Below are positions 51 through 41,627 of a stretch of 56,406 bases of DNA, piece by piece. Position numbers and translations under genes: made by a program. Origin of the DNA: an uncultured Candidatus Saccharibacteria bacterium (GTDB taxonomy: Bacteria; Patescibacteriota; Minisyncoccia; Phycocordibacterales; UBA9973). The DNA is taken from assembly GCA_964645245.1 (NCBI GenBank), contig CAZYBS010000004.1:1-56406 (forward strand). The letters are read 5' to 3'. How positions within the stretch are numbered: the first letter of the stretch is position 1; each line of letters starts with the position of its first letter. The notes beneath the pieces were generated by a model that saw nothing but the letters and a program-made list of their open reading frames with translations, had not been told where the DNA came from and made no database searches.

Positions 51-83
51 AAAAAGAAAAACGGTCAGCTTGTGGGCTGACCG
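51..83 (-). terminator. rho-independent terminator closing GC-rich island A
   Basis: Minus-strand hairpin CGGTCAGC/GCTGACCG (62-69/76-83) followed by a T-run (A-run 51-61 on +). Two more hairpins at 85-100 and 108-123. Confidence 0.6.
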
Positions 84-129
84 ACCAACCGATAGGTTGG
101 ATTTGTGCCTTGCGTTTGCAAGGGCTTGA

Positions 130-408
130 TTAGTTCACAGACTTCGGACGGTCAACCGCTGCCTTTCTCTGACCTCCGGAGAAGATGACTTCCATCGCAC
201 GAAGGTCTTTGATGCCTCGACGATCCGTCTCTGCGATCAACTGCCGAATCGTTTCGAGAAACGGTGTATTCGGCAGATGCGTGATTGTGAACACTTCCGT
301 CTCTTCGCCGGTGAGGAAGACATCTTCCTTCGTCTTGAAGTTCTCTGACCCACCCAGCAGGATGACGTAGTGATTGCCGCGGAACAAGTACACGAGCAGA
401 CTAAGCAT
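130..408 (-). CDS. hypothetical protein, island A gene 2 (~92 aa)
   Basis: ORF track 130..435. The internal ATG at 408 is preceded by AGGAGG and overlaps the stop of the upstream ORF (coupled pair). GC-rich codons; no recognisable motif. Confidence 0.45.
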   Translation of the reverse strand: MLSLLVYLFRGNHYVILLGGSENFKTKEDVFLTGEETEVFTITHLPNTPFLETIRQLIAETDRRGIKDLRAMEVIFSGGQRKAAVDRPKSVN

Positions 409-847
409 TGAGTCCTCCTGATGTTGTCGATTCATGTGGGAACGAATGTTGTAGAAAGAACTCCCACGTAACTCCTGGTGGAGCTAGCACGACACACGCC
501 AGCTTCTTCACGAGTACCGCGTAGCGGATCTCGTAACCATCGCTGCGTACGAACCGCAAGTCCTTCGCTTTGAGGATGACGTATCGAAGAGATTTTCCCG
601 CTGTCTCTTGAAGCTGGATCATTTCCTCGCAATCACCATTCTCCGAACTTACGTTGACCCACACAGCGATGTCGTCTGGCAGAGGATCATCTCGAAAAAT
701 CTGCCTTGTCTCCTCACTGTGCTTATTGAGATGAAGTACTCGCACAGGAGTGACAATCGAGTGCCATCTCGGTCTGATTGCGTACAGACCGGGATAGTCC
801 CGAAGAACACTCATTGCCGCTAGATGTCGATGTCTACGTTTTCTCAT
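401..847 (-). CDS. hypothetical protein, island A gene 1 (148 aa)
   Basis: ORF track. GGAGGG lies 7 nt upstream of the ATG, and the 924-952 promoter is upstream. No recognisable family. Confidence 0.45.
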   Translation of the reverse strand: MRKRRHRHLAAMSVLRDYPGLYAIRPRWHSIVTPVRVLHLNKHSEETRQIFRDDPLPDDIAVWVNVSSENGDCEEMIQLQETAGKSLRYVILKAKDLRFVRSDGYEIRYAVLVKKLACVVLAPPGVTWEFFLQHSFPHESTTSGGLNA

Positions 848-923
848 ACCTGAACCCTCCGGTTCTTTGAGGCCCTCCGGCCATCTGGTAGTTCCTGCAA
901 ACGTGATTGTCGCAGGACAGCAA

Positions 924-952
924 ATCTTACCACGAATTAAAAGCTACGTCAA
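924..952 (-). promoter_or_regulatory. sigma70-like promoter driving island A
   Basis: Minus strand reads TTGACG-17 nt-TAAGAT, in AT-rich DNA immediately upstream of the GC-rich segment. Confidence 0.55.
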
Positions 953-1121
953 CAGCAACAAAAAAATCAGCTTTCGCTGAATTAAAAAATCTTATGAAAA
1001 AATTTCTTTTGCTCTTCACGATAAATCCTTTTCCTTTTCGCCAAAAAAGCCCTTTCAAATCCTATGCGAGCGGCGCGTCTCGCGCCGCGAGCTTGCCTCT
1101 GCAAATTTGCATTTTCCCAAC

Positions 1122-1212
1122 TGGCGGAGGAGGTGAGATTCGAACTCACGAACCAGTTGCCTAGTTTCCGCTTTTCAAGAGCGGTGCCTTCAACCACTCG
1201 AGCCACTCCTCC
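1122..1212 (-). tRNA. tRNA-Ser (anticodon TGA), CCA encoded
   Basis: Manual cloverleaf: acceptor GGAGGAG/CTCCTCC, loop CTTGAAA, long variable arm, T-loop TTCGAAT. Close to the E. coli tRNA-Ser pattern. Confidence 0.85.
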
Positions 1213-1265
1213 TTACTTCACTTTCGATGTTATCAAAAAAAGGCTTTTTATGCTAGTCTTTTCTT

Positions 1266-1724
1266 ATGAAAATTCCAGGGAAATTTCTCGGCATTGACTA
1301 TGGCACAAAGAGGGTAGGACTGGCATTATCCGACCAGAATGGGCGGCTGGCTTTTCCGAAGGAAGTGGTGAAGAATAACGGCGAGCTTTTCCGGAAAATA
1401 GGAATTATTCTGTCTAATGAAAAAATTTCGGAGATAGTTGTTGGTGAATCATTTGACTTTACCAATCTGCCGAATGCCTTGATGAAAGAAATAGGTTTTT
1501 TTGTTTCTAAATTGGAGAAAAAATTTAAAATTCCAGTCTATCTTCAGAAAGAATTTTTAACGTCAGTTGAAGCCCGCCGATACTTAAGTTTTGGCGGGCA
1601 AGCCCGGCGTTATGGAAACCCCGAGGAGCACGTAGATGCTTCGGCGGCAGCGCTTATTTTACAGAGGTATTTGGATAAAAAGAATCAACAAAATAATGGC
1701 GGAAATAGCGAGGATGTAATATAA
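1266..1724 (+). CDS. ruvX: Holliday junction resolvase-like nuclease YqgF/RuvX
   Basis: N-terminal GIDYGTKRVGLALSD and C-terminal EAR..GG..VDASAAALILQ pattern typical of YqgF. Confidence 0.85.
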   Translation: MKIPGKFLGIDYGTKRVGLALSDQNGRLAFPKEVVKNNGELFRKIGIILSNEKISEIVVGESFDFTNLPNALMKEIGFFVSKLEKKFKIPVYLQKEFLTSVEARRYLSFGGQARRYGNPEEHVDASAAALILQRYLDKKNQQNNGGNSEDVI

Positions 1725-1731
1725 TGTTGAT

Positions 1732-5137: not shown

Positions 5138-5839
5138 ATGAAGATTAAAATCTTATATGAGGATCCTAATATTCTAGTCATAGATAAACCGTCTGGCATT
5201 TCGGTGCACGCTGATGGTAGGAGCAAGGAGAAAACAATTACTAATTGGGTTTTGAAAAACTATCCAAAAATGGAAAATGTCGGCGAGCCAATAGGAGAAG
5301 TAAAACGCTCTGGTATTGTGCATAGATTAGATAAAGAAACTTCCGGGGTTTTAATTCTGGCTAAAAATAAAAAAGCACATCAATTTTTGAAAAAGCAATT
5401 TATTAATAGGGAAGTCAAGAAAATATATCATTGTGTTGTTTCAGGTTTTGTTAAAAATGACCACGGCGTTATAAACAAGCCGATTGGTCGGAGTCCAAAG
5501 GATTTTCGTCGTCATTTAGCGGGCAGAGGGGCGAGAGGGGCACTGCGTGAGGCCATTACAGAATACAAAGTTCTAAAAAGATTTATTAATAAAAAAGAAA
5601 AATTCACTTATCTGGAAATAAAACCAAAAACTGGCCGGACGCACCAGATTCGTGTGCATATGAAATTCCTAAATCATCCGGTTGTTTGCGATTCGCTGTA
5701 TAGTCCTGGCAAGCCTTGCCCTAAAGGCATAAAACGTTTGGCCCTCCACGCTAAATCTATAGAGTTTAAGAACCTAAATGGTAAAAACATAAAATTAGAG
5801 TCATCCTTGCCCTTGGAGTTTAAAAAAGTGATATTTTAA
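5138..5839 (+). CDS. rluD: RluA-family pseudouridine synthase
   Basis: HRLDKETSGVLILAKN catalytic motif and KTGRTHQIRVH motif. Confidence 0.85.
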   Translation: MKIKILYEDPNILVIDKPSGISVHADGRSKEKTITNWVLKNYPKMENVGEPIGEVKRSGIVHRLDKETSGVLILAKNKKAHQFLKKQFINREVKKIYHCVVSGFVKNDHGVINKPIGRSPKDFRRHLAGRGARGALREAITEYKVLKRFINKKEKFTYLEIKPKTGRTHQIRVHMKFLNHPVVCDSLYSPGKPCPKGIKRLALHAKSIEFKNLNGKNIKLESSLPLEFKKVIF

Positions 5840-5888
5840 CTTTTCTTAAGTTGTTTCCCAAATATTTTTAATATATTTAACGTTTATA

Positions 5889-5917
5889 TTGACAAATAGT
5901 AATAAGTCTGCTATTGT
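5889..5917 (+). promoter_or_regulatory. sigma70-like promoter driving island B
   Basis: TTGACA-17 nt-TATTGT in AT-rich DNA, about 20 nt before the GC-rich segment. GAGGAG SD before the ATG at 5967. Confidence 0.55.
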
Positions 5918-5966
5918 ATAAAGAAAGATTTTCCGTACATCACACTGTCCCTTTGAGGAGACCAGT

Positions 5967-6386
5967 ATGAAACTGATTTTGCTTGCTCTTTGTCTTTTCG
6001 CAGCTACCACCGCCTATGCCCAAGAGGAACCGATCCCACTGGTTTCGGGGAGTGTGTGGCTCGACCTCTTCATAGGTCCGGACGGCGCAGTAGTCTACCC
6101 ACAATACTCGTTCAAGGTGGACGGGTTGCGGATGGTCGTGACAGGCTACGGGTTCTGGGAGAAGGCTCCTGGTGAACCTGACTTCACCAACCACGTCAAC
6201 ACGTTCAACCTGGCACGGCTTCCGTATTTTTCTTTGCGGACGGAAATCGGCGGCCGGGTACGGAAGTTCACAGTCGACACGGCCGCTGGTTCTGTCAGCG
6301 TGCCACCTGCCGGGTTCTTCCAGGCTGGTCCGCAAGCCAACCTGCACCAGGTGTTTCCGCTCAAAGGGATGGATATTACCTGGTAG
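5967..6386 (+). CDS. secreted beta-rich protein, island B ORF1 (139 aa)
   Basis: Gram-negative-type signal peptide MKLILLALCLFAATTAYAQ. Alternating hydrophobic beta-strand pattern; GC-rich. Confidence 0.5.
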   Translation: MKLILLALCLFAATTAYAQEEPIPLVSGSVWLDLFIGPDGAVVYPQYSFKVDGLRMVVTGYGFWEKAPGEPDFTNHVNTFNLARLPYFSLRTEIGGRVRKFTVDTAAGSVSVPPAGFFQAGPQANLHQVFPLKGMDITW

Positions 6387-6643
6387 TGTCTTACTTGCCA
6401 GCCCTGGCTGGCATCCGCCCGAATAACACGATTCTTGCGGGCGGTACGCGGAAATTTGGACTTGGTTCCACTCTGGCGGTCTCCGGGGAAGGCTACCGTC
6501 GCTTCTTTCCGGATGGGGCAGACTACAGTGAGTTCTGGATGTTTGTCGGGGTAGAGCGCATGAAGCACTTCACGCCGGCGGTCTTCATTCTCACTGACGG
6601 AGAGGCGAAGAGCTTCGCCATCGGGGGCAGGTTTTCTCCGTGA
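6386..6643 (+). CDS. island B ORF2 (85 aa): coupled ORF or frameshifted C-terminal half of ORF1
   Basis: The GTG start overlaps the TAG stop of ORF1 (TAGTG). The beta-strand pattern continues and ends in ..FAIGGRFSP. Confidence 0.35.
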   Translation: MSYLPALAGIRPNNTILAGGTRKFGLGSTLAVSGEGYRRFFPDGADYSEFWMFVGVERMKHFTPAVFILTDGEAKSFAIGGRFSP

Positions 6644-6652
6644 AACAAAATC

Positions 6653-6685
6653 GGGCAATCGTTCTCTTAGTGGGAGCGATTGCCC
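6653..6685 (+). terminator. hairpin terminator of island B
   Basis: GGGCAATCG/CGATTGCCC 9-bp stem, 10 nt after the stop. Weak T-tract. Confidence 0.5.
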
Positions 6686-6743
6686 CCACTATTTAGTTTA
6701 TATTTTCTTTGTGAATTAATTGTGGGATAATAAATAGGCATGA

Positions 6744-8522
6744 ATGAAACTAGAAGTTGCCAAAACCCCGAACGAAAGCGAAGCTTCATACGGGGCAGGC
6801 TGCAAAAAAGATATGAGCGATATTAGCGAAAAGAGAATATGTCAGAATTGTCGTGGTGAATTTATAATCGAGCCGGAGGATTTTTCTTTTTACGAAAAAC
6901 TCAAAGTACCGCCGCCGACCTGGTGTCCTGAGTGCCGGATGATTCGGCGCTTCGCTTGCATTAATTGCTGGTCTTTGTTTTATCGGAATTGCGATAAATG
7001 CGGCAAGCGTACGCTCTCCATGTACCCACCCACCCAAAAAATAAATGTCTATTGCCCGCCATGCTGGTGGGGGGATTCTTGGGACGGCACCGAATATGCC
7101 ATGGATTATGATGAAAGCCGGCCGTTTTTAGAACAACTTAGAGAATTGACAGACAAAACTCCTTACATGGCGCTCGAAGCTGATTACCCTACTTTAAAAA
7201 ATTGCGATTACAGTAACGCGCTAGGTTATTGCAAAAATTGCTTTTTAGTGGTTTGGGCGGATAATTGTGAAAATGTTTTCCACTCTTCTATCTTGAACGA
7301 GGATAAAGACATAGCTGACTCTTTATTGGTTTTTAGCTCGGAATTATGTTATGAGTCAAACTGGTTGCACAAATCTTACCGGGTTTTTTATTCGCAGGAT
7401 TGCGATGCGTGCACTGATGTTTGGTTTTCTAGAAATTGTTATGGATGCATGAATTGTGTCGGCTGCGCGAATCTGCGCGGAGCATCGTACTGTATTTTTA
7501 ACGTCAAATATTCAAAAGAAGAATACACAGAAAAATTAAAAGAACTAAAACTAGATACCCGTTCTGGGATAAATGCACTTATAAAAGAAGTAGAAATATT
7601 CTGGAAAAAATTCCCTTACCGTTTCTACCGAGGGGATACATTCAACTTAAACGTGACTGGCGAATATATTCATAAGTCAAAAAACTCGAAAGATATGTAT
7701 ATTGTAGGTTATGCGGAGAATTGCAGGCGCTGCCAACTTATTACCTTTAAGCCCGCCAAAGATTGCATGGACTACTCGGGCTGGGGTCATGGAGCCGAAC
7801 TTATTTATGAATCAGCCAACGTCGGCGTGAAGGTGAGTAATTCAAAGTTCTCCTGCTATTGCTGGCCCGACATAATAAATACGGAATATTGCCTCTTTTG
7901 CACTTCCTCAAAAAACAATTTTGGTTGCGTAAATTTAAAACGTAAAAGCTATAGTATTTTAAACAAGCAGTACAGTAAGGAAGAATACGAAAAGCTCAAA
8001 ACGCAAATTGTCGGGGATATGAAAAATAATCCGTATGTGGATGAACATGGGCGAGCGTGGCCGTACGGAGAGTTTTTCGGGATCGGTTTTTGTAAATTCG
8101 CCTATAATAATTCCAACGCTAATAAATTCTTCCCAAAGACAAAAGAAGAAGCACTGAAGATGGGTTACACTTGGAATGATGAAGAGGAGAAGCAGCCTGA
8201 GGCGACTTTAAATGGCAAAGATTTGCCGGAAACAATAAGCGAAGTGAATGATTCGATTTTAAAAGAAGTTATTTCTTGTACTACTTGTGACAGGAAATAT
8301 AAAATAGCTTCACTGGAATTTGACCTTTTAAGAAAAATGAATATGCCTCTGCCTACTCGGTGCTTAAGATGTCGCGAGAAAGAAATTTTCTCCAGAATAA
8401 ACATACCCGGTCTTTATGATCGAAGGTGTATGAAGTGCGATGTTGATATAAAAACTCCTTATGCGCCCGCTCGGCCGGAAATAGTCTATTGTGAAAAATG
8501 CTATCAGCAGGAATTTGCTTAG
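6744..8522 (+). CDS. large Cys-rich zinc-ribbon repeat protein (unknown function)
   Basis: Many CxxC pairs. The N- and C-terminal ribbons are related (CQNCRGEF..CPEC / CTTCDRKY..CLRC). Start uncertain (6744 or ATG 6813). Confidence 0.6.
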   Translation: MKLEVAKTPNESEASYGAGCKKDMSDISEKRICQNCRGEFIIEPEDFSFYEKLKVPPPTWCPECRMIRRFACINCWSLFYRNCDKCGKRTLSMYPPTQKINVYCPPCWWGDSWDGTEYAMDYDESRPFLEQLRELTDKTPYMALEADYPTLKNCDYSNALGYCKNCFLVVWADNCENVFHSSILNEDKDIADSLLVFSSELCYESNWLHKSYRVFYSQDCDACTDVWFSRNCYGCMNCVGCANLRGASYCIFNVKYSKEEYTEKLKELKLDTRSGINALIKEVEIFWKKFPYRFYRGDTFNLNVTGEYIHKSKNSKDMYIVGYAENCRRCQLITFKPAKDCMDYSGWGHGAELIYESANVGVKVSNSKFSCYCWPDIINTEYCLFCTSSKNNFGCVNLKRKSYSILNKQYSKEEYEKLKTQIVGDMKNNPYVDEHGRAWPYGEFFGIGFCKFAYNNSNANKFFPKTKEEALKMGYTWNDEEEKQPEATLNGKDLPETISEVNDSILKEVISCTTCDRKYKIASLEFDLLRKMNMPLPTRCLRCREKEIFSRINIPGLYDRRCMKCDVDIKTPYAPARPEIVYCEKCYQQEFA

Positions 8523-8550
8523 TTTCTTTTTTTGTGTTAGATTTCTCGCT

Positions 8551-8943
8551 ATGTTAAGCAAAATAAAATTCAGTCCGGTAGACATGGAAGCCCGCAAGAA
8601 ACTCAACTTTAAAGCCGGGGATACGGTGTCCGTCTGGTCTAAGATACAGGACGAAAAAGGTAAGTTTCGCTTACAGGCTTTTGAAGGCATGGTGCTGGCC
8701 AGAAAGCATGGCACAGAAATTGGCGCGACTTTTACTGTCAGAAAAATCGCTTCCGGTATCGGGGTTGAAAGAATTTTCCCGCTTTATTCTCCAATGATAG
8801 ATAAAATTGAAATAATTAAAAAATCTCATGCTCGCCGGTCCAAACTTTATTATATTCGCACCAAGGCGGTCAAAGACGTCCGCAGCAAAATGCGTTCATC
8901 TACACCAATAGCTGAGGAAGCTCTAGCGGAAGAGGCAAAATAA
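8551..8943 (+). CDS. rplS: 50S ribosomal protein L19
   Basis: KAGDTVSVWSKIQDE..RLQAFEGMVLARK..TFTVRKI..GVERIFPLYSP pattern. ATG at 8551 inside ORF 8491..8943. Confidence 0.9.
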   Translation: MLSKIKFSPVDMEARKKLNFKAGDTVSVWSKIQDEKGKFRLQAFEGMVLARKHGTEIGATFTVRKIASGIGVERIFPLYSPMIDKIEIIKKSHARRSKLYYIRTKAVKDVRSKMRSSTPIAEEALAEEAK

Positions 8944-8969: not shown

Positions 8970-9052
8970 GCGCGGGTGGAGAAACGGTAGACTCGCCATC
9001 TTGAGGTGGTGGTGCCTGTAAAGGCGTGGAGGTTCAAATCCTCTCCCGCGCA
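8970..9052 (+). tRNA. tRNA-Leu (anticodon GAG)
   Basis: Acceptor GCGCGGG/CCCGCGC, loop TTGAGGT, long variable arm TGCCTGTAAAGGCGT, T-loop TTCAAAT. Confidence 0.8.
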
Positions 9053-9131
9053 CAGACAACCTAACTTTTTTTTGTATTGATTTTTTATTTAAATATAGGT
9101 ATTCTTTTTCTAAACGTACACAGGGAGGATT

Positions 9132-9350
9132 ATGTCCACGGACGAAGAAAGTGCTCGGAGTCTATTGGTGAGTCAAGGGTTCAAGAAATTTACCCTTACA
9201 TACGATCCGGACGCCCTTCTGGGCATGCGGTGGTGGTGCTCAATTCGTGGCGTTTGGGCGCCAGTCCTACATGGTAGGGCCGAGGACTGGGGTTTTACCG
9301 CTATGGATGCCGTACTCAAGGCGTTGGCGTGTGGCCCAAGAAGGGAGTGA
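9132..9350 (+). CDS. hypothetical small protein, island C (72 aa)
   Basis: GGGAGG SD just upstream, GC-rich, followed by the 9358-9386 hairpin. No recognisable motif. Confidence 0.4.
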   Translation: MSTDEESARSLLVSQGFKKFTLTYDPDALLGMRWWCSIRGVWAPVLHGRAEDWGFTAMDAVLKALACGPRRE

Positions 9351-9357
9351 TTAACAT

Positions 9358-9386
9358 CGCGCCGGCGGAGACCATCCCCCGGCGCG
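9358..9386. terminator. GC hairpin between convergent island C ORF and ogt
   Basis: CGCGCCGG/CCGGCGCG 8-bp stem. No clear T-run on either strand. Confidence 0.45.
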
Positions 9387-9389
9387 AAA

Positions 9390-9644
9390 CTATTTAATCG
9401 CTCCCTCTTTGCGCAAAAGTTTGATTTTGTTTTTTATTCCGCGATTGTAATTGCCTAGACTTCCGTCGGATTTGATGACTCTATGGCAAGGTATTTTCAC
9501 ATCAAAATTCTTAGAGAGAATTCTCCCCACCGCGCGATAAGCCAAAGGGCTCTCCGCGCATTTCGCCACCTCTTTATAGGTTATGGTTTTACCCCTTGGT
9601 ATGGTTTTAACTATATTTAAAACTTTCTCTTTAAAATTAGTCAT
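9390..9644 (-). CDS. ogt: methylated-DNA-protein-cysteine methyltransferase (MGMT/Ogt DNA-binding domain)
   Basis: PCHRVIKSDGSLGNY active-site motif. The ATG at 9644 gives ~84 aa. Confidence 0.8.
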   Translation of the reverse strand: MTNFKEKVLNIVKTIPRGKTITYKEVAKCAESPLAYRAVGRILSKNFDVKIPCHRVIKSDGSLGNYNRGIKNKIKLLRKEGAIK

Positions 9645-12400: not shown

Positions 12401-12881
12401 AATTTGTAATAGGAAATTCTATGCAAGGCCATCTTTCTTAAAACATGGATGGGGTTTATACTGTTCTCGTATTTGTCATCATGGGGGCATGATAAAACCT
12501 CGAAGAAAGTTTAGTTGTTTTACATGTGGTAAGGATGTTTTTATTGAGCAGTCAAAAATAAAAAAATCCAAGAGCGGTAAATTTTTTTGTGATAAATCAT
12601 GCCAGACAAGGTGGCGTAATAAAGTATTTTCAGGGATAAGGCACAGGAATTGGAAAGACGGATCCCAAATTTATCGGAGAAAATTATTAAACAGTCGAAA
12701 GGTTAAACGATGTATATTATGCAGACAGGATGACTTTCGTGTTCTTGCCGTGCATCATGTTGATCAAAATAGGAAAAACCAAAAACTTGAAAACTTAGAA
12801 TGGTTGTGCCACAATTGCCATTACCTTGTCCATCATGATGAAAAAGAGCAAAAAAAATTCCTGCGCTTGATTGGTAGATAA
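12375..12881 (+). CDS. HNH endonuclease paralog
   Basis: LAVHHVDQNRKNQKLENLEWLCHNCHYLVHH. Same architecture as the upstream gene. ATG at 12375 inside ORF 12330..12881. Confidence 0.75.
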   Translation: MLKPNTKCKICNRKFYARPSFLKHGWGLYCSRICHHGGMIKPRRKFSCFTCGKDVFIEQSKIKKSKSGKFFCDKSCQTRWRNKVFSGIRHRNWKDGSQIYRRKLLNSRKVKRCILCRQDDFRVLAVHHVDQNRKNQKLENLEWLCHNCHYLVHHDEKEQKKFLRLIGR

Positions 12882-12889
12882 GGGTATAT

Positions 12890-12963
12890 GGTACCCGTGG
12901 TGTATTGGTTTCGCACGTACCCCTGTGGAGGGTGAAGAAAGGGTTCAAATCCCTTCGGGTACC
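12890..12963 (+). tRNA. tRNA-His (anticodon GTG) with encoded G-1
   Basis: G-1 opposite C73, acceptor GTACCCG/CGGGTAC, loop CTGTGGA, T-loop TTCAAAT. Confidence 0.8.
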
Positions 12964-29986: not shown

Positions 29987-30457
29987 ATGAGACGCAAAGT
30001 TAAAAATAGAAATATAATTTCCCCTGATTTCGTCTACAATTCCCAGAAATTAGAGAAATTTATCAATTACATCATGTGGTCTGGGAAAAAAGAAACTGCC
30101 AGAAAAGTAATGTATCAGGCTTTTGATGTGATCAAAGAAAAAACAGGCAACCCGAATCCATTGGAAATTTTTGATTTGGCGCTTAGAAATGCTGGTCCCT
30201 CAACCGAAGTGCGTTCCAAGCGCATCGGGGGCGCGAACTATCAGGTACCGATAGAAGTGCGAGCTGAACGCCGTCTGGCTTTAGCTATGCGCTGGATTCG
30301 CGACGCGGCTCGCAGTGGCAAAGGGCGTCCGATGCATTTGAAACTGGCCGATGAGTTGATTTCCGCTTCCAGGAACGAAGGTTCGGCGATTAAAAAGAAA
30401 GAAGACACGCACAAGATGGCCGAGGCCAATAAAGCTTTTGCCCATTTTGCATGGTGA
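29987..30457 (+). CDS. rpsG: 30S ribosomal protein S7
   Basis: Typical S7 length and motifs (GKKETARKV, VRSKRIGGANYQVP, ..HFAW end). Confidence 0.95.
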   Translation: MRRKVKNRNIISPDFVYNSQKLEKFINYIMWSGKKETARKVMYQAFDVIKEKTGNPNPLEIFDLALRNAGPSTEVRSKRIGGANYQVPIEVRAERRLALAMRWIRDAARSGKGRPMHLKLADELISASRNEGSAIKKKEDTHKMAEANKAFAHFAW

Positions 30458-30506
30458 TAGAAAATAAGGAGCAAGGCGACTATATTTTCATCATCCTGCT
30501 CAAATT
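30457..30506. repeat. direct repeat copy 1 flanking island D (starts at the rpsG stop)
   Basis: ATAGAAAATAAGGAGC..GGCGACTATATTTTCAT.. recurs at 31483-31533 (roughly 40 of 50 positions). Confidence 0.7.
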
Positions 30507-30561
30507 TTGCCGCTGCTTACTCTAAATGTTTTAAATAAACACTTAACTCAATATTGAAAAT

Positions 30562-30642: not shown

Positions 30643-30709
30643 AATAAGAAAGTCCCGGCAACCACGAAGGCCGCCGGGACTGAGATGCGCGAGTGCTAGG
30701 CCACTCGCG
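30643..30709 (-). terminator. tandem hairpin terminator of island D gene
   Basis: CGCGAGTG/CACTCGCG (30688-30709) and AGTCCCGGC/GCCGGGACT (30651-30681), followed on the minus strand by TTCTTATT. Confidence 0.55.
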
Positions 30710-30750
30710 AGTTGATGATTTTTTCCGTTTACCTAGAACGTCTTTTGCCG

Positions 30751-31287
30751 TTATTGTTTAACGGCTATTTCAAGCAACCTGAGATCGTTCGGCACGTCGA
30801 AGATATTGAACGCACTGGCGATGTTCTGAGCCCGTCGTACCGCTCTGTACGCCTTTCGGTCACCACGACGTGCGTTTCGCATAGCAGAGCGCTTGTCTCT
30901 CAGACCAAAGAGGGAGTTTACCTCCCAGCGCTCCACTTCCTCAACGCGTCCTCTACATGCGTTAAGCGAGCCAACACGCCGCTTGAGTTCTCGCTTGATT
31001 TCCTTCTCAAGCATCGGACGCTCACTCCAATCGGGAGGTATGTGATACGGTGGGTGCACTCTGTAGATGATACAGAAGATAATGCACCACCATGTCCACA
31101 CCAGACCCACGCCGATTCCGAGGATCGTTCCGCCCGCACTTGCCGTGAAGACGAGTGCCACCACGATGGTGATTAACCCGCCTTGAGTGGCTTGGACAGG
31201 CGCGTGGGCTTGCATATACATCAGTGTATAAACGAGCACCACGACTGAAGGGGCGCCAACCAACAGGTAGCCTAATGCTCTTCTCAC
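30751..31287 (-). CDS. hypothetical membrane protein, island D (178 aa)
   Basis: GTG start 5 nt after AAGGAGG. Two to three N-terminal TM helices, then an Arg/Glu-rich cytoplasmic tail. GC-rich. Confidence 0.5.
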   Translation of the reverse strand: MRRALGYLLVGAPSVVVLVYTLMYMQAHAPVQATQGGLITIVVALVFTASAGGTILGIGVGLVWTWWCIIFCIIYRVHPPYHIPPDWSERPMLEKEIKRELKRRVGSLNACRGRVEEVERWEVNSLFGLRDKRSAMRNARRGDRKAYRAVRRAQNIASAFNIFDVPNDLRLLEIAVKQ

Positions 31288-31379
31288 GATTTCCTCCTTC
31301 TGCGACCCTGTCTAAACTAGCTCCTTGCCAGTCAGACCTAAGCCTCTTTGGCTCAGTGAATCGCTCGAGACACTCGATC

Positions 31380-31408
31380 ATCATAGCACTTATTCCTATA
31401 AAAGTCAA
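31380..31408 (-). promoter_or_regulatory. sigma70-like promoter driving island D
   Basis: Minus strand reads TTGACT-17 nt-TATGAT. The GC-rich sequence begins immediately after the -10 box. Confidence 0.6.
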
Positions 31409-31425
31409 GGGCTAAAATAAAACTA

Positions 31426-31482: not shown

Positions 31483-31533
31483 ATAGAAAATAAGGAGCTT
31501 TGGCGACTATATTTTCATAACCCTGTTAAATTA
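31483..31533. repeat. direct repeat copy 2 flanking island D
   Basis: See 30457-30506. Lies just upstream of the GIY-YIG gene. Confidence 0.7.
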
Positions 31534-31542
31534 TTTTAAATT

Positions 31543-31806
31543 ATGGGAAAGTACTACTATGTATATGTCTTACTGTCTGATAAAGATGGAAACTTCTATA
31601 CAGGTTTTACAGAAGATTTAAAATCAAGATTTGAGCGACACAGTAACAAGTTCGTAAAATCTACAAGAGATAGAGGTAAGCTTACCCTTGTATATTCTGA
31701 AGCTTGTTTAAGTAAAAAGGACGCCCTACACCGTGAGAAGTATTTGAAAACCTATCACGGCAAGCAATTTTTACGAAATAGGCTCAAATCTTATTTAACA
31801 GGGTAG
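31543..31806 (+). CDS. GIY-YIG nuclease family protein
   Basis: YYVYVLLSDKDGNFYTGFTEDLKSRFERH motif; 87 aa. Confidence 0.85.
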   Translation: MGKYYYVYVLLSDKDGNFYTGFTEDLKSRFERHSNKFVKSTRDRGKLTLVYSEACLSKKDALHREKYLKTYHGKQFLRNRLKSYLTG

Positions 31807-31841
31807 TGATTTTCTAATCGCTATGCTCAAGAAAATCAACT

Positions 31842-33989: not shown

Positions 33990-34025
33990 CTTTTGTTTTT
34001 TATATTTTTTGCTACTATATTAGAG

Positions 34026-35102
34026 ATGCTTCTTACCCCATTTTACGACCCGGAAAAGTCTTACGAAGAGAATTTTAAAGAAGGCCCTTTTGGAGCTTTT
34101 GCCGACGGAGTGGTAATAGATTACGGAGGAAACTCCTCCGTAATGCCCAAGTTTGATTTTCTTGGTTTCAAAGTAAATTCGCCTTTTGGTATTGCCGCCG
34201 GACCGCTACTTAATGGTAATTTTATTAAGGCGGCACTTGATAAAGGTTTTGATATCCCGATGCAAAAAACTTTGCGCACTAGAAAAAGGCTGAGTCACGC
34301 CTGGCCGAATGTTTTACCCGTAGATGTATCTGGTGACTTAAAAATTAACTCTAGACCACTACACACAAAATCTAATTTTGAAGATCCAATTTCCATTACA
34401 AATTCCTTTGGTAATCCTTCAGTTGATCCGAGTGTTTGGCAAGAGGACCTTAAATCGGCTGTGGCTTATGCAAAAGGCGGGCAAATAGTCTCAGCTAGTT
34501 TTGAAGGTACAAGATGGGAAGGATGCAGCGAAGAAGATTATATAAATGATTGGGTTCTGGCAGCCAAGCTTTTAAAAGAAACAGGTGTTCATTTTATTGA
34601 AGCTAATTTGAGCTGCCCGAATGAAGGTATTACATCACTGCTTTGTTATGATGCATCGCGAGTGGAGATTATTGCGCGAGCTATCAAAAGAGAAATTGGG
34701 TCTTTGCCCTTGGTCCTGAAAATCTCTTATTTCACTGATGAAGCAGAGTTGCATGACCTGGTCAAGCGAGTCGGAAATATTGTGGATGGATTCGCTTCCA
34801 CTAATACTATCCAAGCCGAAGTAGTGGACAATAAAGGCAAGCAAATCCTGCCCGGGGAGGGGAGATTACGAAGCGGTATCTGTGGGTGCTCCGTGAAATG
34901 GGCAGGGTTAAGTATGGTAAAAAGATTAAAAAAACTGCGCGAAGAGTTAGGGTATTCATATGCTATTATCGGCGTCGGTGGAGTGATGACTCCGGAAGAT
35001 TTCTTTGAATATAGAAATGCCGGCGCGGATATCGTAATGTCGGCAACCGGCGCGATGTGGAACCCATATCTTGCAAAGGAGATTAAAGAAAGGTTAAGAT
35101 GA
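34026..35102 (+). CDS. pyrD: dihydroorotate dehydrogenase family (class 1-like)
   Basis: SPFGIAAGP and NLSCPN active-site motifs, C-terminal GVGGV. ATG at 34026. Confidence 0.65.
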   Translation: MLLTPFYDPEKSYEENFKEGPFGAFADGVVIDYGGNSSVMPKFDFLGFKVNSPFGIAAGPLLNGNFIKAALDKGFDIPMQKTLRTRKRLSHAWPNVLPVDVSGDLKINSRPLHTKSNFEDPISITNSFGNPSVDPSVWQEDLKSAVAYAKGGQIVSASFEGTRWEGCSEEDYINDWVLAAKLLKETGVHFIEANLSCPNEGITSLLCYDASRVEIIARAIKREIGSLPLVLKISYFTDEAELHDLVKRVGNIVDGFASTNTIQAEVVDNKGKQILPGEGRLRSGICGCSVKWAGLSMVKRLKKLREELGYSYAIIGVGGVMTPEDFFEYRNAGADIVMSATGAMWNPYLAKEIKERLR

Positions 35103-35716
35103 ATTATATGCGGGATATAATAAGTATTTTAAAAGGCGTCGGAGCAATTATTACTGATAGCCATTTTGTCGGTACTTCTGGCAGACATATGTCGGCATAT
35201 ATCAATAAAGATGCGCTTCTTCCCTACACGAAACATGTGTCAGAGGTTGGAAAGTTATTTGCAGAAAAATTTAAAAATAAAAAAATAGAAGCTGTAGTTG
35301 CTCCAGCAGTGGGAGGAATTCCTTTATCCCAATGGACTGCGTATCATTTGAGCAAAATGTCCAAAAAGGACGTTTTGAGTTTATATACCGAGAAGACTCC
35401 GGATAATAACCAGATATTAAAAAGAGATTATGAAAATTTGGTTAAGAATAAAAGAGTGCTTGTCGTTGAAGATACCACTACTACGGGCGGTTCAGTTAAA
35501 AAAGTAATACGAAGCGTTAAAAAAGCGAAAGGGAGGGTCGTCGCAGTATGCATTATGGTAAATCGAGATCCCAAAATAGTGAATTCCAAGAGTATCGGCG
35601 CGCCTTTTTCTTCCTTGGGAGTTTTTAAAGTACCTTCTTACGAAGCCAAGAACTGCCCGTTATGCAAAAAAGGCGTACCGATTAATACACAGTTGGGCCA
35701 TGGAAAAAAATTTTAG
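35099..35716 (+). CDS. pyrE: orotate phosphoribosyltransferase
   Basis: PRPP motif VLVVEDTTTTGGS. Confidence 0.8.
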   Translation: MNYMRDIISILKGVGAIITDSHFVGTSGRHMSAYINKDALLPYTKHVSEVGKLFAEKFKNKKIEAVVAPAVGGIPLSQWTAYHLSKMSKKDVLSLYTEKTPDNNQILKRDYENLVKNKRVLVVEDTTTTGGSVKKVIRSVKKAKGRVVAVCIMVNRDPKIVNSKSIGAPFSSLGVFKVPSYEAKNCPLCKKGVPINTQLGHGKKF

Positions 35717-36527
35717 AAAAGAAAAAATGATTATCGACAAATATAATAAAAGAGCCAAGAAAATAAATTCGCTCCTCTGCGTTGGGCTGGATGCGGATTT
35801 TGCTAAAATTCCAAAACGTTTTTTGAGCCGTAAATTTCCGCAGTTTGAGTTTAATAAATGGATTATAGGGGAAACGCATCAGTTCTCGTCTGCATATAAG
35901 TTGAATATGTCAATTTATGAAGATCGCGGGGAGGAAGGTTTGAGTGAAATGAAAATGACAACTTCTTATCTTCAAAAAAATTACCCTGACATATTTACTA
36001 TATGTGATGCAAAACGAGGAGATATTGGACCCTACAATAAAGGTTATGTGAATTCCACTTTTGATATTATGGGTTTTGATGCAATGACCCTGCATCCTTA
36101 TTTAGGTAAAGAATCTTTAGAACCATTTTTAGACCGAAAGGATAAAGGATGTATTATTATCTGTCGTACTTCTAATCCTGGGGCGGGAGAATTGCAAGAT
36201 CTTATTGTAGATAGCGTGCCTCTCTGGCAAAAAGTTGCACAAAAAGTGGTAAATGAATGGAATAAAAATAAAAATTGTATGCTGGTCGTCGGTGCAACCT
36301 ATCCGAAAGAAATGAAAAAGATTCGGAGACTGGTTGGCGATATGACTTTCCTAGTACCAGGCATCGGGGCGCAAGGAGGAGACTTAAAGAGTGTATTAAA
36401 AGCGGGACTCAACAAAAAAGGTCTCGGTCTTATCATCAATTCTTCTCGAAGTATTATTTTTTCCAAAAATCCAAAGAAAGAAGCCAGGAAACTTTATGAG
36501 GAGATTAGAAAATATAATTTTTCATAA
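35700..36527 (+). CDS. pyrF: orotidine 5'-phosphate decarboxylase (type 2)
   Basis: LCVGLDAD and CDAKRGDIG motifs. Confidence 0.8.
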   Translation: MEKNFRKEKMIIDKYNKRAKKINSLLCVGLDADFAKIPKRFLSRKFPQFEFNKWIIGETHQFSSAYKLNMSIYEDRGEEGLSEMKMTTSYLQKNYPDIFTICDAKRGDIGPYNKGYVNSTFDIMGFDAMTLHPYLGKESLEPFLDRKDKGCIIICRTSNPGAGELQDLIVDSVPLWQKVAQKVVNEWNKNKNCMLVVGATYPKEMKKIRRLVGDMTFLVPGIGAQGGDLKSVLKAGLNKKGLGLIINSSRSIIFSKNPKKEARKLYEEIRKYNFS

Positions 36528-39722: not shown

Positions 39723-40015
39723 TGCTTCGCTTCACAAAAAATAACATGACAAACATTATTAAAAATCCAAGAGTTACTGAAAAAGCATCTTTTGCCCAAG
39801 AGCAAAATGTTTACACTTTTGATATTTCTTCTTCGGCCAATAAAACGGAAATAAAGAAGGCAATTTTTACGCTTTATAAAGTAAAACCTGTAAAAGTGAA
39901 TGTTTTGAGAGTACCAAGAAAAAATATTATGTCCAAAGGCAAGGCTGGAGTAAAAGGTGGAGGTAGAAAAGCTCTTGTTTATTTAAAGATGGGTGATAAG
40001 ATAGAATTTATTTAA
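39719..40015 (+). CDS. rplW: 50S ribosomal protein L23
   Basis: IIKNPRVTEKA..YTFDI..NKTEIKKA pattern. Start may be the internal ATG. Confidence 0.9.
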   Translation: MMLRFTKNNMTNIIKNPRVTEKASFAQEQNVYTFDISSSANKTEIKKAIFTLYKVKPVKVNVLRVPRKNIMSKGKAGVKGGGRKALVYLKMGDKIEFI

Positions 40016-40018
40016 TTT

Positions 40019-40858
40019 ATGAAGAGCTATAAACCGACAACTAAATCTAGAAGACAAATGACCAATGTATCTTACCGGGGAGTTTTGACGCGCTCGGAGT
40101 CAACCAAATCCCTTACTGCTGGTTTCAAGCGTTCACAGGGGCGAAATAGTCAAGGACGCATCACTATGCGGCACAAGGGCGGAGGGCACAAGCGTCTTTT
40201 TCGAGATGTGGACTTTTTATATAACAAGAAAGAAATTCCGGCCAAAATAAAGTCTATTGAATATGACCCGAATCGCTCGGCTTTTATCGGGTTAGCTGTC
40301 TACCGAGACGGAGAAAAAAGATACGTGGTATTGCCAAAGTCCGTCAAGCCTGGGGATTCATTCACTGTATCTGATAAGGCGTCCTTAACAGCAGGCAACA
40401 GACTTCCTCTTAAAAATATTCCAGTCGGAACTTTTGTTTATAATATTGAAATCAAACCCAATGGCGGTGCGAAGATTGCCCGTTCGGCGGGAATTTTTGC
40501 GCAAGTAGTTGCTAATGCTGATGGATATACGAACATAAAAATGCCTTCATCCGAAATCAGAAAAATAAATGAAAACTGCTGGGCCTCTATCGGCACTGTT
40601 TCAAACGAAGAGCATCATTTGGAAAATTACGGTAAAGCTGGACGGTCTCGCTGGAAAGGAATCAGGCCGACAGTTCGCGGTACGGCCATGAACCCGGTAG
40701 ACCATCCATACGGAGGCGGAGAAGGCAGACAGGGTCGCGGAACCAAGCGTCCAAAGACAATGTGGGGCAAAGTTACCGGCGGACGCAAAACCCGCGGTCC
40801 AAAGAAATACTCAAATGTGTTTATCATCTCCCGCCGCAGGACTGGGAAGAATAAATAA
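40019..40858 (+). CDS. rplB: 50S ribosomal protein L2
   Basis: RGTAMNPVDHPYGGGEGR motif. Confidence 0.96.
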   Translation: MKSYKPTTKSRRQMTNVSYRGVLTRSESTKSLTAGFKRSQGRNSQGRITMRHKGGGHKRLFRDVDFLYNKKEIPAKIKSIEYDPNRSAFIGLAVYRDGEKRYVVLPKSVKPGDSFTVSDKASLTAGNRLPLKNIPVGTFVYNIEIKPNGGAKIARSAGIFAQVVANADGYTNIKMPSSEIRKINENCWASIGTVSNEEHHLENYGKAGRSRWKGIRPTVRGTAMNPVDHPYGGGEGRQGRGTKRPKTMWGKVTGGRKTRGPKKYSNVFIISRRRTGKNK

Positions 40859-40865
40859 AAAGTAT

Positions 40866-40938
40866 AACCCCTCCCTAACCCTCCCCTTATCAGGGGAGGG
40901 TTTTACGTTTCCCCCTGACAAGGGGGATTTGGGGGGTT
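40866..40938 (+). repeat. CCCCTCC/GGAGGGG three-way-junction repeat element (includes the rplB terminator)
   Basis: Outer AACCCC/GGGGTT. Inner hairpins CCCTCCCC-TTATCA-GGGGAGGG+TTTT (40879-40904) and CCCCCT-GACA-AGGGGG. Confidence 0.6.
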
Positions 40939-41022
40939 GTATTATTCTACAGATGTTATAGACTTTAAATCGAAGTTCACCCGTTAGTTTCGTTCACGTA
41001 CGTTGTTGGCGGAGGTAGCTGT

Positions 41023-41205
41023 ATGAAAGATGGCAAAAGGCGTCGCGAGGCTCGTTTGGTAGCCAGCAAGGAAGTTGAGGCACGCAGGGCGGTCCAACAG
41101 GATGGCACTTCATCGGCCCCGCCGCCGCGCTATTTGCCGGGGACGCCACGACCCTGGCAGCCAAGGCAGGTTCGCCACGGGGACCAAGGGCGTCGGTGGC
41201 GCTAG
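41023..41205 (+). CDS. hypothetical Arg-rich small protein, island E (60 aa)
   Basis: GGAGG 7 nt upstream of the ATG. About 63% GC. Arg-rich (MKDGKRRREARL..). Followed by GAGAC/GTCTC and GAGGG/CCCTC hairpins. Confidence 0.3.
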   Translation: MKDGKRRREARLVASKEVEARRAVQQDGTSSAPPPRYLPGTPRPWQPRQVRHGDQGRRWR

Positions 41206-41295
41206 TTCCCCCACATTTTTCGTGAGACTCGCCATGGGTCTCGAGGGACGTCGTTCATTCGGCGCCCCTCTTCTTATTTATACTCAATATTTACA

Positions 41296-41325
41296 TTTAC
41301 TTTATTTTGCATAAAATGCTATAAT
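41296..41325 (+). promoter_or_regulatory. extended -10 promoter (TGCTATAAT) for the island E RNA
   Basis: TTTACT -35-like hexamer. TGCTATAAT at 41317-41325. Confidence 0.5.
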
Positions 41326-41330
41326 ACAAA

Positions 41331-41627
41331 TGGATCTGTTCTCAACCGGTTTCTCTCAGCCGGTCAGGTCCAGGAAGGGGATGTACGGCGTTGACGGATC
41401 ATCGACGGGAGCCTCCTAGGGTTGTGTGCTCCTCGGGGCGCACAGAAGAGGAACAAAGGGTTTGGGACACGGTGGCTGCCGTGATCCCTGACAGTCTCAA
41501 GGGGCCAGGATGGTCCCCGAAGGGAGTGTTCGAGCAGATGGTAGTGGCGGCTCAGAAGAAGTAGGGTCGCCAAGTTTGAGGGTGACTACACCCCTGGGGT
41601 CCAAGAACATCGGACCCCAGTTTTTTT
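41331..41627 (+). ncRNA. candidate ~295-nt structured GC-rich RNA of unknown class
   Basis: Own promoter. At least 5 local hairpins (41345-64, 41424-44, 41464-88, 41501-18, 41565-87). Strong intrinsic terminator CTGGGGTCC/GGACCCCAG + T7 (41594-41627). No convincing ORF. Confidence 0.45.

Follow-up and report, generated by a model that had tools for sequence, protein, structure and literature searches.

The five GC-rich islands (A–E) in the window, the whole 56,406-nt stretch of DNA analysed here, are best explained as small accessory units that were laterally acquired and sit in permissive intergenic slots in a moron-like manner (probability about 0.55). Repeated lateral capture, proposed in a sequence-only reading of this DNA, is the best reading for islands A, C, D and E but not for island B as a recent capture. 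The islands do not form the single feature class of that proposal. They comprise one conserved protein family together with ORFans, an ORF of doubtful status and a candidate RNA.

Composition and codon usage of the islands

All five islands are real GC outliers. The whole window has a GC content of 40.3%, and 700-nt windows of the backbone have a mean of 0.394 (sd 0.043, maximum 0.504). The GC content is 0.51 for A, 0.56 for B, 0.55 for C, 0.53 for D, 0.56 for the E1 region and 0.58 for E2, with 200-nt peaks of 0.53–0.655. The island means of 51–58% fall short of the 55–65% originally estimated, and A is the weakest outlier. Islands D and E differ from their surroundings, but by less than claimed, given that nearby ribosomal-protein and tuf genes reach a GC content of about 0.50. 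In the dinucleotide signature (delta*), A, B, D and E2 exceed the 95th percentile of backbone chunks. The host genome is that of an AT-rich, Nomurabacteria-like member of the Patescibacteria from groundwater.

The islands are also foreign in codon usage. The combined codon usage of A, C and D correlates with that of native genes at r = -0.25, whereas native chunks correlate at r = 0.54–0.90 (mean 0.74). The same set correlates positively with B-family genes of other genomes (r = +0.60; null maximum 0.09) and with GC-rich cassettes in the relatives L015 and L005 (r = +0.48). Native high- and low-expression gene sets correlate with each other at r = 0.81. With the low-expression native set as the starting point, the codon shift toward the islands correlates with that toward the highly expressed set at only 0.19, and the island shift is therefore not an exaggerated high-expression bias.

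Junctions in independent assemblies

The island junctions are real DNA. Most of the junctions checked recur in independent assemblies, which in practice excludes assembly chimerism. An ENA contig (L029) matches at 100% identity over 20.8 kb spanning D and E, Logan contigs cross B and, of D, the S7-side junction, and island A is crossed by both ENA and Logan contigs. Abrupt composition switches and ORFs without homologues would be expected of assembly or binning chimeras that join reads of a GC-richer organism. Such an origin is nevertheless extremely improbable, since the NCBI MAG, ENA MEGAHIT and Logan assemblies are identical base for base at the A, B, D and E junctions, and B cassettes with the same AT-rich flanks are seen again in other samples.

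Islands A and C beside tRNA genes

Islands A and C contain the following features.

56–955, minus strand: island A, autonomous two-gene cassette, GC 0.51, outlier in GC and signature
62–83, minus strand: terminator hairpin of A, 8-bp stem and then a T-run (scan)
130–408, minus strand: A2 ORF, 92 aa, ATG preceded by an SD (sequence reading, assembly calls, frame test)
401–847, minus strand: A1 ORF, 148 aa, ORFan
924–952, minus strand: predicted promoter of A, TTGACG-17-TAAGAT, TG-extended -10 (promoter scan)
1122–1212, minus strand: tRNA-Ser(TGA), 3' end toward island A
8970–9053, plus strand: tRNA-Leu(GAG), directly upstream of island C
9100–9400, plus strand: island C, GC 0.55, SD GGGAGG
9132–9350, plus strand: island C ORF, 72 aa, candidate ORFan (sequence reading, Pfam, frame test)
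9357–9387, plus strand: island C hairpin

The A2 start and the A1 stop overlap by 8 nt (ATGCTTAG), and in the preferred reading island A would be a translationally coupled two-gene operon. A1 retrieves only itself from 5.8e9 proteins and has no match in Pfam, PHROG, NCBIfam or PADLOC; its called frame is the best of six. The product of C is, in the same reading, a small soluble candidate ORFan. The case for coding by A1, A2 and C consists of SD sites, the overlap within the operon and a frame test biased toward open frames.

Both islands adjoin tRNA 3' ends as originally described, A at ~170 nt from tRNA-Ser and C at ~50 nt from tRNA-Leu, and it is composition that marks them as insertions. 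A strain variant (L023) has a breakpoint exactly at the tRNA-Ser 3' CCGCCA and has, on both sides of island A, a GC-rich hairpin element of ~110 nt in two copies. This element is absent from the deposited version, and no copy was found in the window.

Island B and a conserved secreted protein family

Island B consists of a promoter, a split gene and a terminator.

5889–6690, plus strand: island B, promoter, split gene for a predicted beta-barrel and terminator, GC 0.56
5889–5917, plus strand: predicted promoter of B, TTGACA-17-TATTGT, TG-extended -10 (scan)
5967–6386, plus strand: B1, N-terminal 139 aa, signal peptide (cleavage motif AYA/QEE)
6375–6376, plus strand: extra 'AT', the frameshift that splits B
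6386–6643, plus strand: B2, C-terminal 85 aa, same family as B1
6653–6697, plus strand: terminator hairpins of B, kept in L020, L021 and L025

B is a copy, split by a frameshift, of a secreted protein of ~222 aa that is conserved as a family. Removal of the extra 'AT' yields a 224-aa protein that is colinear with the homologues, and the split is also present in the Logan assembly. The family is predicted to fold into a 12-stranded antiparallel beta-barrel, and the product is modelled as a secreted, porin-like barrel that is broken here by the 2-nt insertion. Because its dN/dS is about 0.12–0.2, B represents a real gene family under purifying selection.

At least three further AT-rich genomes (L020, L021 and L025) have a homologue of B, in every case GC-rich, at this locus. 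The locus has the terminator and the downstream gene in common in all three and the promoter as well in L025, where the terminator hairpin shows a compensatory change. B is therefore not a recent capture, and for B the horizontal-capture proposal is not supported. The syntenic copies are saturated in dS (1.5–2.9) and have GC3 values of 0.59–0.75 at flank GC values of 0.21–0.40. Simple acquisition and amelioration should erase such GC-richness, so the composition of B must be maintained otherwise. The persistent GC-richness of B lies outside what simple lateral acquisition explains. On a 57% GC contig (L006), the one natively GC-rich contig with a B homologue, this homologue has a GC3 of 0.77 versus 0.66–0.72 in the neighbouring MurD and GatC genes, and B is compositionally native there. 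Similarities are star-like: identity of the window copy is 62% with the L006 copy and 61–62% with the syntenic copies.

Islands D and E in ribosomal operons

Islands D and E are inside ribosomal operons, as proposed; D occupies the S7–fusA gap and E the L2–S19 gap.

30457–30508, plus strand: DR1, native, directly after the S7 stop, kept in L012
30644–31424, minus strand: island D cassette, GC 0.53, edges set by alignment with the relative L012
30651–30681, minus strand: terminator of D, 13-bp stem (scan)
30751–31287, minus strand: D ORF, 178 aa, ORFan (ORF length P = 0.002; frame test)
31380–31408, minus strand: predicted promoter of D, TTGACT-17-TATGAT, TG-extended -10 (scan)
31483–31535, plus strand: DR2, copy of DR1 and 5' edge of the GIY-YIG insertion
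31543–31806, plus strand: GIY-YIG nuclease ORF, 87 aa, AT-rich
40865–40945, plus strand: hairpins with G/C runs following L2, among them a terminator (11-bp stem)
41023–41205, plus strand: E1 'ORF', 60 aa, 22% Arg, GC 0.66
41296–41325, plus strand: predicted promoter of E2, TTTACT-18-TATAAT, TG-extended -10 (scan)
41330–41627, plus strand: E2, candidate structured RNA (~300 nt) with a hairpin and T-run at its end
41635–41662, plus strand: native S19-operon promoter, kept in relatives, right edge of the E slot

In the D product, the N-terminal part includes hydrophobic stretches that are putative TM helices, and the C-terminal domain is charged; D is a putative membrane-protein ORFan. Searches of 5.8e9 proteins and, by HMMER, of 1.8e9 proteins returned only self-matches. 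The direct repeats described around D exist, but they enclose native DNA and the fusA promoter together with D and are no D-specific signature. DR1 is native, being present in L012, and DR2 belongs with the GIY-YIG ORF to a separate insertion (31484–31841) that ends directly before the fusA ATG; the pair was accordingly discarded as an insertion signature of D.

E1 is probably non-coding: its ORF length has P = 0.44, its frame ranks third of six with a negative score, and its RNA fold has z = -1.3. E2 folds with z = -3.65, and none of 100 shuffles is equally stable. Rfam gave no match for E2, even at E <= 10. E2 is a candidate structured small RNA with its own predicted promoter and terminator, and this promoter is weakly similar to the same position in L012.

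The slots of D and E vary among sister genomes, and empty sites were found for both. S7 and fusA are contiguous in L013, L014 and L015; in L012 a small AT-rich ORF fills the slot, and in L019 it is filled by toxin-antitoxin modules. The L2–S19 gap is 105 nt in L014, and in L012, L013 and L019 the slot is taken by HicAB or by different GC-rich hairpin RNAs. No relative of D or E was detected by tblastn or tblastx in 13 sister loci, several of them with empty slots. Elsewhere, the pyrF–tuf gap of L015 has the same architecture (promoter, SD, GC-rich 213-aa ORF and terminator), and L005 carries three GC-rich cassettes beside its 16S gene.

Predicted expression signals

The promoters and terminators of the islands are consensus predictions. 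The three promoters quoted in the sequence-only reading (A minus strand, 952–924; B plus strand, 5889–5917; D minus strand, 31408–31380) were recovered exactly in place, each with a TG-extended -10, and a fourth was found ahead of E2. Consensus promoter matches are abundant in AT-rich DNA (31 and 42 observed versus ~22 expected). TG-extended predicted promoters number only nine in the 24 kb scanned, of which four are at island edges and three are just upstream of native rluD, tuf and S19. Predicted terminator hairpins were identified by the scan in A and D and by reading of the sequence in B, C and E2, and GGAGG-type SD sites were likewise seen on reading. In A, B, D and E2 a complete transcription unit, as claimed for every island, is plausible; C has no convincing promoter, and the E1 ORF does not exceed chance.

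Proposed acquisition route and alternative explanations

In the lateral-acquisition reading, the slots would lie at operon boundaries in the ribosomal str/S10 cluster and beside tRNA 3' ends, and the source would be a higher-GC gene pool, most likely other Patescibacteria. Most transfers detected in aquifer Patescibacteria are reported to run from Patescibacteria to Patescibacteria (PMC12455944). Each unit would have arrived with, or since acquired, its expression signals: a sigma-70 promoter of host type whose -10 is TG-extended, a strong SD and an intrinsic terminator. With these signals it could be expressed alone, leaving its neighbours undisturbed as phage morons do. The likely route would be DNA uptake followed by homology-assisted recombination, which is suggested by the partial 3'-end gene duplications that flank other inserted cargo (L28 here; L2 and S7 in relatives). 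Such duplicated 3' ends flank none of the five islands. No donor of A, C, D or E was identified, and this counts against the reading.

The units may instead be long-resident, clade-specific genes and RNAs rather than recent imports, with a composition actively maintained by selection on mRNA or RNA stability, by GC-biased gene conversion at recombination-prone surface-protein loci or by continual allele replacement via conserved flanks. The shared B locus and its GC3 at saturated dS favour this view, the star-like similarities of B fit allele exchange, and the L2–S19 slot of L012 and L013 holds a GC-rich, strongly folded unit with a weakly similar promoter and 5' end. We consider it unlikely for the set as a whole, although it deserves some weight: A1 and D have no relatives anywhere searched, D and E are missing from the 13 sister loci, the island codon usage is off the native high-expression trend, and the copy of B in this genome is already in decay.

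A doubtful explanation is that the units are cargo of a mobile system of cassette type, so far undescribed, that inserts promoter-ORF-terminator modules, whether the system is integron-like, targets tRNA or gene 3' ends or is mobilised by the neighbouring GIY-YIG nuclease. The tRNA 3' ends abutting A and C, the L023 breakpoint with hairpin copies on both sides of A, the GIY-YIG gene next to D and the duplicated 3' ends of L28, L2 and S7 around other cargo are consistent with it. The ends of the five islands, however, have no common sequence or structure, boundary motif, terminal inverted repeats, target-site duplication or attC-like sites, and Pfam reveals no integrase or transposase in or beside them. 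DR1 is native, the GIY-YIG insertion is distinct from D, and the L023 hairpin element is not part of the window. The new insertion mechanism once considered for the islands is thus not borne out. Descent from phage morons or decayed prophage remnants is improbable, even though the islands match the moron definition in their predicted promoter, terminator and deviant GC content (PMC3594210) and D has a marginal PHROG match to 'moron/membrane protein' (E = 0.15). PHROG gives no family match below E = 0.1, A1, A2, B, C and D have no relatives in 2.9 million IMG/VR contigs, the neighbourhood contains no phage genes, and the islands are single and scattered through housekeeping operons.

Comparison with known systems

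The B family resembles the KdgM/NanC porins and PcoB, 12-stranded outer-membrane beta-barrels, in combining a signal peptide with a predicted 12-stranded antiparallel barrel. The B model matches PcoB with TM-scores of 0.50/0.58 and KdgM with 0.43/0.55 (probability 1.0 each), but the B family shows neither sequence-family membership nor a terminal aromatic residue. KdgM/NanC and PcoB are outer-membrane barrels, whereas the genes of the B family are found in Patescibacteria, for which the absence of an outer membrane has been proposed (PMC12102498).

Integrative elements that target tRNA or gene 3' ends are similar to A and C in their position beside tRNA 3' ends, and in this clade conserved genes have duplicated 3' ends on the flanks of other inserted cargo; unlike such elements, the five islands have no integrase or att-type repeat. 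The genomic islets and horizontally transferred genes of aquifer Patescibacteria (PMC12455944) are alike in lineage and habitat, and compositional deviation is their detection criterion. Typical predicted islands there are far larger than the present units of 0.3–0.9 kb, which have one or two ORFs, are ORFan and would each form a complete transcription unit.

The architecture itself, first described as no familiar feature class, is that of phage morons, which carry a promoter and a terminator of their own, deviant GC content and independent expression (PMC3594210). The islands differ from morons in being chromosomal, in ribosomal-protein operons or by tRNAs, GC-richer than their surroundings and without phage relatives found. 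Like morons of the HK97 gene 15 type, they are single genes or small operons with their own (here predicted) promoter and terminator, differ in GC content from their neighbours, separate genes that adjoin each other in related genomes and would be expressed independently.

Composition and expression signals of the islands

The GC content of the window is 40.3%, and its backbone averages 0.394 in 700-nt windows (sd 0.043, maximum 0.504). Six segments in five islands (A–E) stand out from this background:

56–955, minus strand: island A, adjoining tRNA-Ser, with two ORFs (A1 and A2); GC 0.51
5889–6690, plus strand: island B, a gene split into two halves (B1 and B2); GC 0.56
9100–9400, plus strand: island C, adjoining tRNA-Leu, with one ORF; GC 0.55
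30644–31424, minus strand: island D, between S7 and fusA, with one ORF; GC 0.53
41023–41205, plus strand: E1, an ORF of island E between L2 and S19; GC of the E1 region 0.56
41330–41627, plus strand: E2, an RNA candidate of island E; GC 0.58

By dinucleotide signature, A (274), B (161), D (187) and E2 (262) all lie farther from the backbone than the 95th percentile of the backbone's own chunks (153). The sequence-only reading described an abrupt switch to 55–65% GC; the switch is real in both GC content and dinucleotide signature, but the island means are lower (51–58%).

The promoters quoted in that reading for A, B and D are present, each with a TG-extended -10 element, and a fourth consensus promoter with the same extension precedes E2. 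Sites with this extension are few: the 24 kb scanned contain nine, of which four lie at island edges and three shortly upstream of the native genes rluD, tuf and S19. A, B, D and E2 each combine a predicted consensus promoter with a terminator hairpin; C lacks a clear promoter. The terminator hairpins, the GGAGG-type SD sites and the positions adjoining tRNA-Ser, tRNA-Leu, S7/fusA and L2/S19 were likewise confirmed.

The codon usage of A, C and D correlates negatively with that of native genes (r = -0.25); among native chunks the lowest value is 0.54. The correlation is positive with B-family genes from elsewhere (r = 0.60, against a null maximum of 0.09) and with GC-rich cassettes on two retrieved contigs, L015 and L005 (r = 0.48). 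With a codon model trained on these foreign cassettes, a test that favours open frames, the called frames of A1, A2, C and D each scored highest among the six. The GC3 values of the native genes scored range from 0.32 to 0.42. In codon usage, the high- and low-expression native sets correlate at 0.81. Expression-linked codon bias was considered as the source of the GC-richness and rejected, as the shift from low-expression native genes to islands corresponds at only 0.19 to the shift from low to high expression. Several of the cassettes were probably drawn from one compositionally distinct gene pool.

Island junctions and slots in sister genomes

The window corresponds to the initial ~56 kb of contig VMFV01000001.1 (assembly GCA_007376215.1), and the reads behind it come from a groundwater project (PRJNA512237; PMC11549363). 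Chimeric assembly, which the sequence-only reading had allowed for, was assessed with independent assemblies. Island A is present on ENA and Logan contigs, B lies with both flanks on one Logan contig, and D is contained as far as S7 on another. D as a whole and E are covered by a 55.5-kb ENA MEGAHIT contig with 100% identity to window positions 25700–46527. Islands A, B, D and E are not chimeras; a search for an independent contig across the junction of C retrieved none.

Another ENA contig from the same population (k139_320273; L023) is identical to the window across island A and diverges exactly at the tRNA-Ser 3' CCGCCA (L023 positions 1–720 and 1775–1885, compared with window positions 975–1127 and the region just left of position 1). 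This break concerns a segment other than island A. On L023, island A is flanked on both sides by a copy of a GC-rich hairpin element (~110 nt; motif TTTGCCCGCCCG); the deposited contig lacks both copies, and the element does not occur in the rest of the window.

The closest species-level relatives found with the pyrD-like gene are MAGs that bear the label Candidatus Nomurabacteria or Patescibacteria. The gene order common to these relatives is helicase, M50 peptidase, S12, S7, fusA, pyrD/E/F, tuf and the S10 operon. In the window, the pyrD-like gene, pyrE and pyrF occupy positions 33993–36527 between fusA and tuf, an order conserved in the Nomurabacteria-like relatives retrieved.

Empty sites, for which the sequence-only reading looked to sibling genomes, were found for D and E. 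S7 and fusA are contiguous in three sister loci (L013–L015), and the E slot measures 105 nt from L2 to S19 in L014. D and E are thus inserted between genes that are adjacent in relatives, as phage morons are. Other sister loci carry different cargo. At the exact position of D, L012 has an AT-rich small-ORF cassette, and the S7/fusA slot of L019 contains toxin-antitoxin modules with a duplicated S7 3' end. The L2/S19 slots of L012, L013 and L019 hold other GC-rich, strongly folded units (z = -6.8 in L013); in L013 the slot additionally contains a HicAB pair, bordered by a duplicate of the L2 3' end. Intergenic slots in these genomes are thus reusable, and their cargo changes. Conserved ribosomal operons and the flanks of tRNAs would provide such slots, in which small cassettes, predicted to be independently expressed, are gained and lost between sister genomes.

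Further accessory segments were observed in the window and its relatives. In the Nomurabacteria relative L015 (positions 12575–13460), a GC-rich ORFan of 213 aa (GC3 0.73), preceded by a consensus promoter and an SD site and followed by a terminator, lies between pyrF and the probable tuf leader. A HicB-HicA-hydrolase segment of the window (27149–28519) is bracketed by the duplicated 3' end of L28 (27029–27115 and 28549–28635); the copy, 87 nt long and 86% identical to the 3' end of the L28 gene (28543–28791, minus strand), lies upstream of the segment. The same pattern of duplicated gene ends surrounds the inserted toxin-antitoxin modules of L013 (L2) and L019 (S7). Just after L5, inside the ribosomal-protein operon, an AT-rich segment (45251–46194) encodes a 192-aa SocA/Panacea-domain protein and an overlapping 122-aa ORF, likely a toxin-antitoxin pair that represents an accessory insertion in a housekeeping operon. 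A near-perfect palindromic hairpin (47534–47594) with weak matches to one miRNA model on both strands occupies the gap between two ribosomal-operon ORFs (ending at 47538 and starting at 47602), where it probably serves in termination or processing.

ORFs of islands A, C and D and the RNA candidate of island E

Island A contains two ORFs with a stop/start overlap (ATGCTTAG) and an SD site before each. Island C contains a 72-aa ORF, and the 178-aa product of island D combines hydrophobic helices at the N-terminus with a charged C-terminal part. Among the island ORFs, only that of D exceeds chance length. Searches of Pfam, PHROGs, NCBIfam and PADLOC assigned no family to any island ORF, and homologue searches with A1 and D among billions of proteins returned only self-hits. 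A single-sequence AF2 model of A1 was unusable as a structural clue (pLDDT 35).

The E1 ORF encodes 60 residues rich in Arg, Pro and Gly. It is probably non-coding, given its length within chance and its poor frame-test score. E2 has its own predicted promoter and terminator, and its fold is more stable than those of all shuffled sequences (z = -3.65). At the gathering threshold, no Rfam covariance model (SRP, 6S, RNase P, tmRNA or any other) matched E2, and relaxing the cutoff to E ≤ 10 brought no meaningful match. Across the window and three sister loci, Rfam detected only tRNAs at gathering and permissive thresholds. An SRP-like motif in E2 (GGUCAGGUCC-AGGAAGG) is only apparent and was backed by no model. 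Homology of E2 to the same-slot units of L012, L013 and L019 was also rejected, because the similarity is weak and confined to the promoter and 5' end. Downstream of E2, AAT(N)ACACGAAT occurs three times in the S19 leader (41665–41717), together with a 16-nt palindrome (CGAATGACACGAATTC / GAATTCGTATCATTCG); this stretch between promoter and start codon may be a regulatory site.

Island B encodes a predicted β-barrel protein

The two B ORFs (139 and 85 aa) correspond to the halves of one 211–240-aa protein family with a signal peptide. The gene is split by an extra AT at positions 6375–6376, without which a colinear 224-aa protein is obtained, and the split is identical in the Logan assembly. 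Of this family (window 5967–6643 and proteins P0002–P0007), a search of 5.8 billion proteins found only seven 90%-identity clusters; it is under purifying selection (dN/dS ~0.12–0.2, with dS saturated at 1.5–2.9). An AlphaFold (AF2) model from six members (pLDDT 84.5) forms a 12-stranded β-barrel, predicted to be closed and antiparallel, and a cleavable signal peptide is read from the sequence. The best structural matches of the model in Foldseek are PcoB and the porin KdgM (TM 0.50–0.58, probability 1.0). The B family is predicted to be a signal-peptide-bearing 12-stranded transmembrane β-barrel of Patescibacteria-type contigs. Its predicted barrel resembles the fold of the KdgM and PcoB outer-membrane barrels, signal peptide included; no Pfam or NCBIfam family, described OMP families among them, matched at E ≤ 1. 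Patescibacteria have been proposed to have no outer membrane (PMC12102498), and a porin-like predicted barrel is unexpected in such a lineage. A tentative possibility is that the barrel is destined for the host cell's outer membrane. The prediction is relevant to the cell envelope of episymbionts and to how they interact with their hosts.

The B gene is also GC-rich in four contigs from other samples (L020, L021, L025 and L026; GC 0.51–0.59, GC3 0.55–0.75), where its flanks have GC contents of 0.21–0.40. The terminator hairpins of the window's B and the promoter of the downstream gene recur in L020, L021 and L025; L021 in addition reaches into the homologous gene that follows, with its start preserved, and the promoter upstream of B is common to L025 and the window. 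The homologue in L006, a contig of 57% GC, is compositionally native. At one locus in at least four AT-rich genomes, B thus has a GC3 of 0.59–0.75 despite saturated synonymous divergence, which implies that its composition is maintained or that its alleles are repeatedly replaced. This lasting GC-richness conflicts with the usual expectation of amelioration and makes B a concrete test case for what maintains base composition.

A B homologue was also observed on L005, a CPR-like contig from the same ENA assembly. Three GC-rich cassettes (5750–8930; 58–69% GC), with an AT-rich gene between them, lie directly upstream of a 16S rRNA gene bearing an insertion and encode a 68-aa protein, a 211-aa Pro-rich secreted protein and the B homologue.

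Origin of the islands and comparison with known elements

Known routes of insertion were evaluated against the islands. The direct repeats around D (30457–30508 and 31483–31535, plus strand) do not mark its insertion: alignment with L012, L013 and L019 ruled out a target duplication. The former repeat is native sequence past the S7 stop, conserved in L012, and the latter constitutes the 5' border of a GIY-YIG nuclease gene that was inserted immediately before the fusA ATG. This AT-rich gene (31484–31841; 87 aa; Pfam PF01541, E = 4.9e-13) lies beside D, is preceded by a copy of the post-S7 sequence and abuts the fusA start codon. In L012, L013 and L019, the fusA leader hairpin runs straight into the ATG; from this absence in relatives, we infer that the GIY-YIG gene may be mobile.

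No repeats, inverted repeats, imperfect palindromes or recombinase genes common to the islands were found. Integron gene cassettes carry promoterless ORFs, whereas the islands carry their own predicted promoters; moreover, no attC-like site was detected, nor any integrase domain among the part of the window ORFs scanned against Pfam. Insertion as an IS element or MITE would leave terminal inverted repeats with a target-site duplication, and this combination was not observed; the edge repeats are short, weak and at chance level. The tRNA-adjacent positions of A and C recall tRNA-integrating islands, yet no integrase was found and no 3' repeat of tRNA-Ser or tRNA-Leu occurs at their distal edges in the window.

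The best-supported account is lateral acquisition of small autonomous cassettes from a higher-GC pool into permissive slots, by an insertion route that is inferred. Once there, the cassettes would be transcribed from promoters of the host type, with their terminators as insulation. Transfers among Patescibacteria have been reported to dominate in aquifers (PMC12455944). A more specific proposal is tentative, with a probability of about one in five: a pool of GC-rich self-contained cassettes would circulate in AT-rich Patescibacteria, their composition kept, as in B, over a long residence by selection or by repeated replacement of alleles through conserved flanks instead of reflecting recent import, with one family (B) being a porin-like barrel possibly exported to the host outer membrane. 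Patescibacteria have tiny genomes, and their way of gaining new functions is poorly known. Should ordinary gene transfer account for everything, the islands would be mainly of descriptive value; the main points of interest are the B paradox and the E2 RNA candidate.

Phage morons are expressed autonomously from their own promoters and insulated by terminators (PMC3594210). The islands resemble them in a composition that departs from that of the surrounding genes; own promoters and terminators are predicted for A, B, D and E2. Morons sit in phages or prophages, whereas the neighbours of the islands are housekeeping genes. All PHROG matches of the island ORFs have E > 0.1, and five IMG/VR scans for viral relatives of the islands were negative; with nothing phage-like present, the islands are not morons in the strict sense. 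The sequence-only reading was partly right: the DNA is foreign and, on the best-supported account, was acquired repeatedly. Its suggestion of a new class of feature or a new mode of insertion finds no support; the islands are probably a variant of the known moron- or islet-type acquisition.
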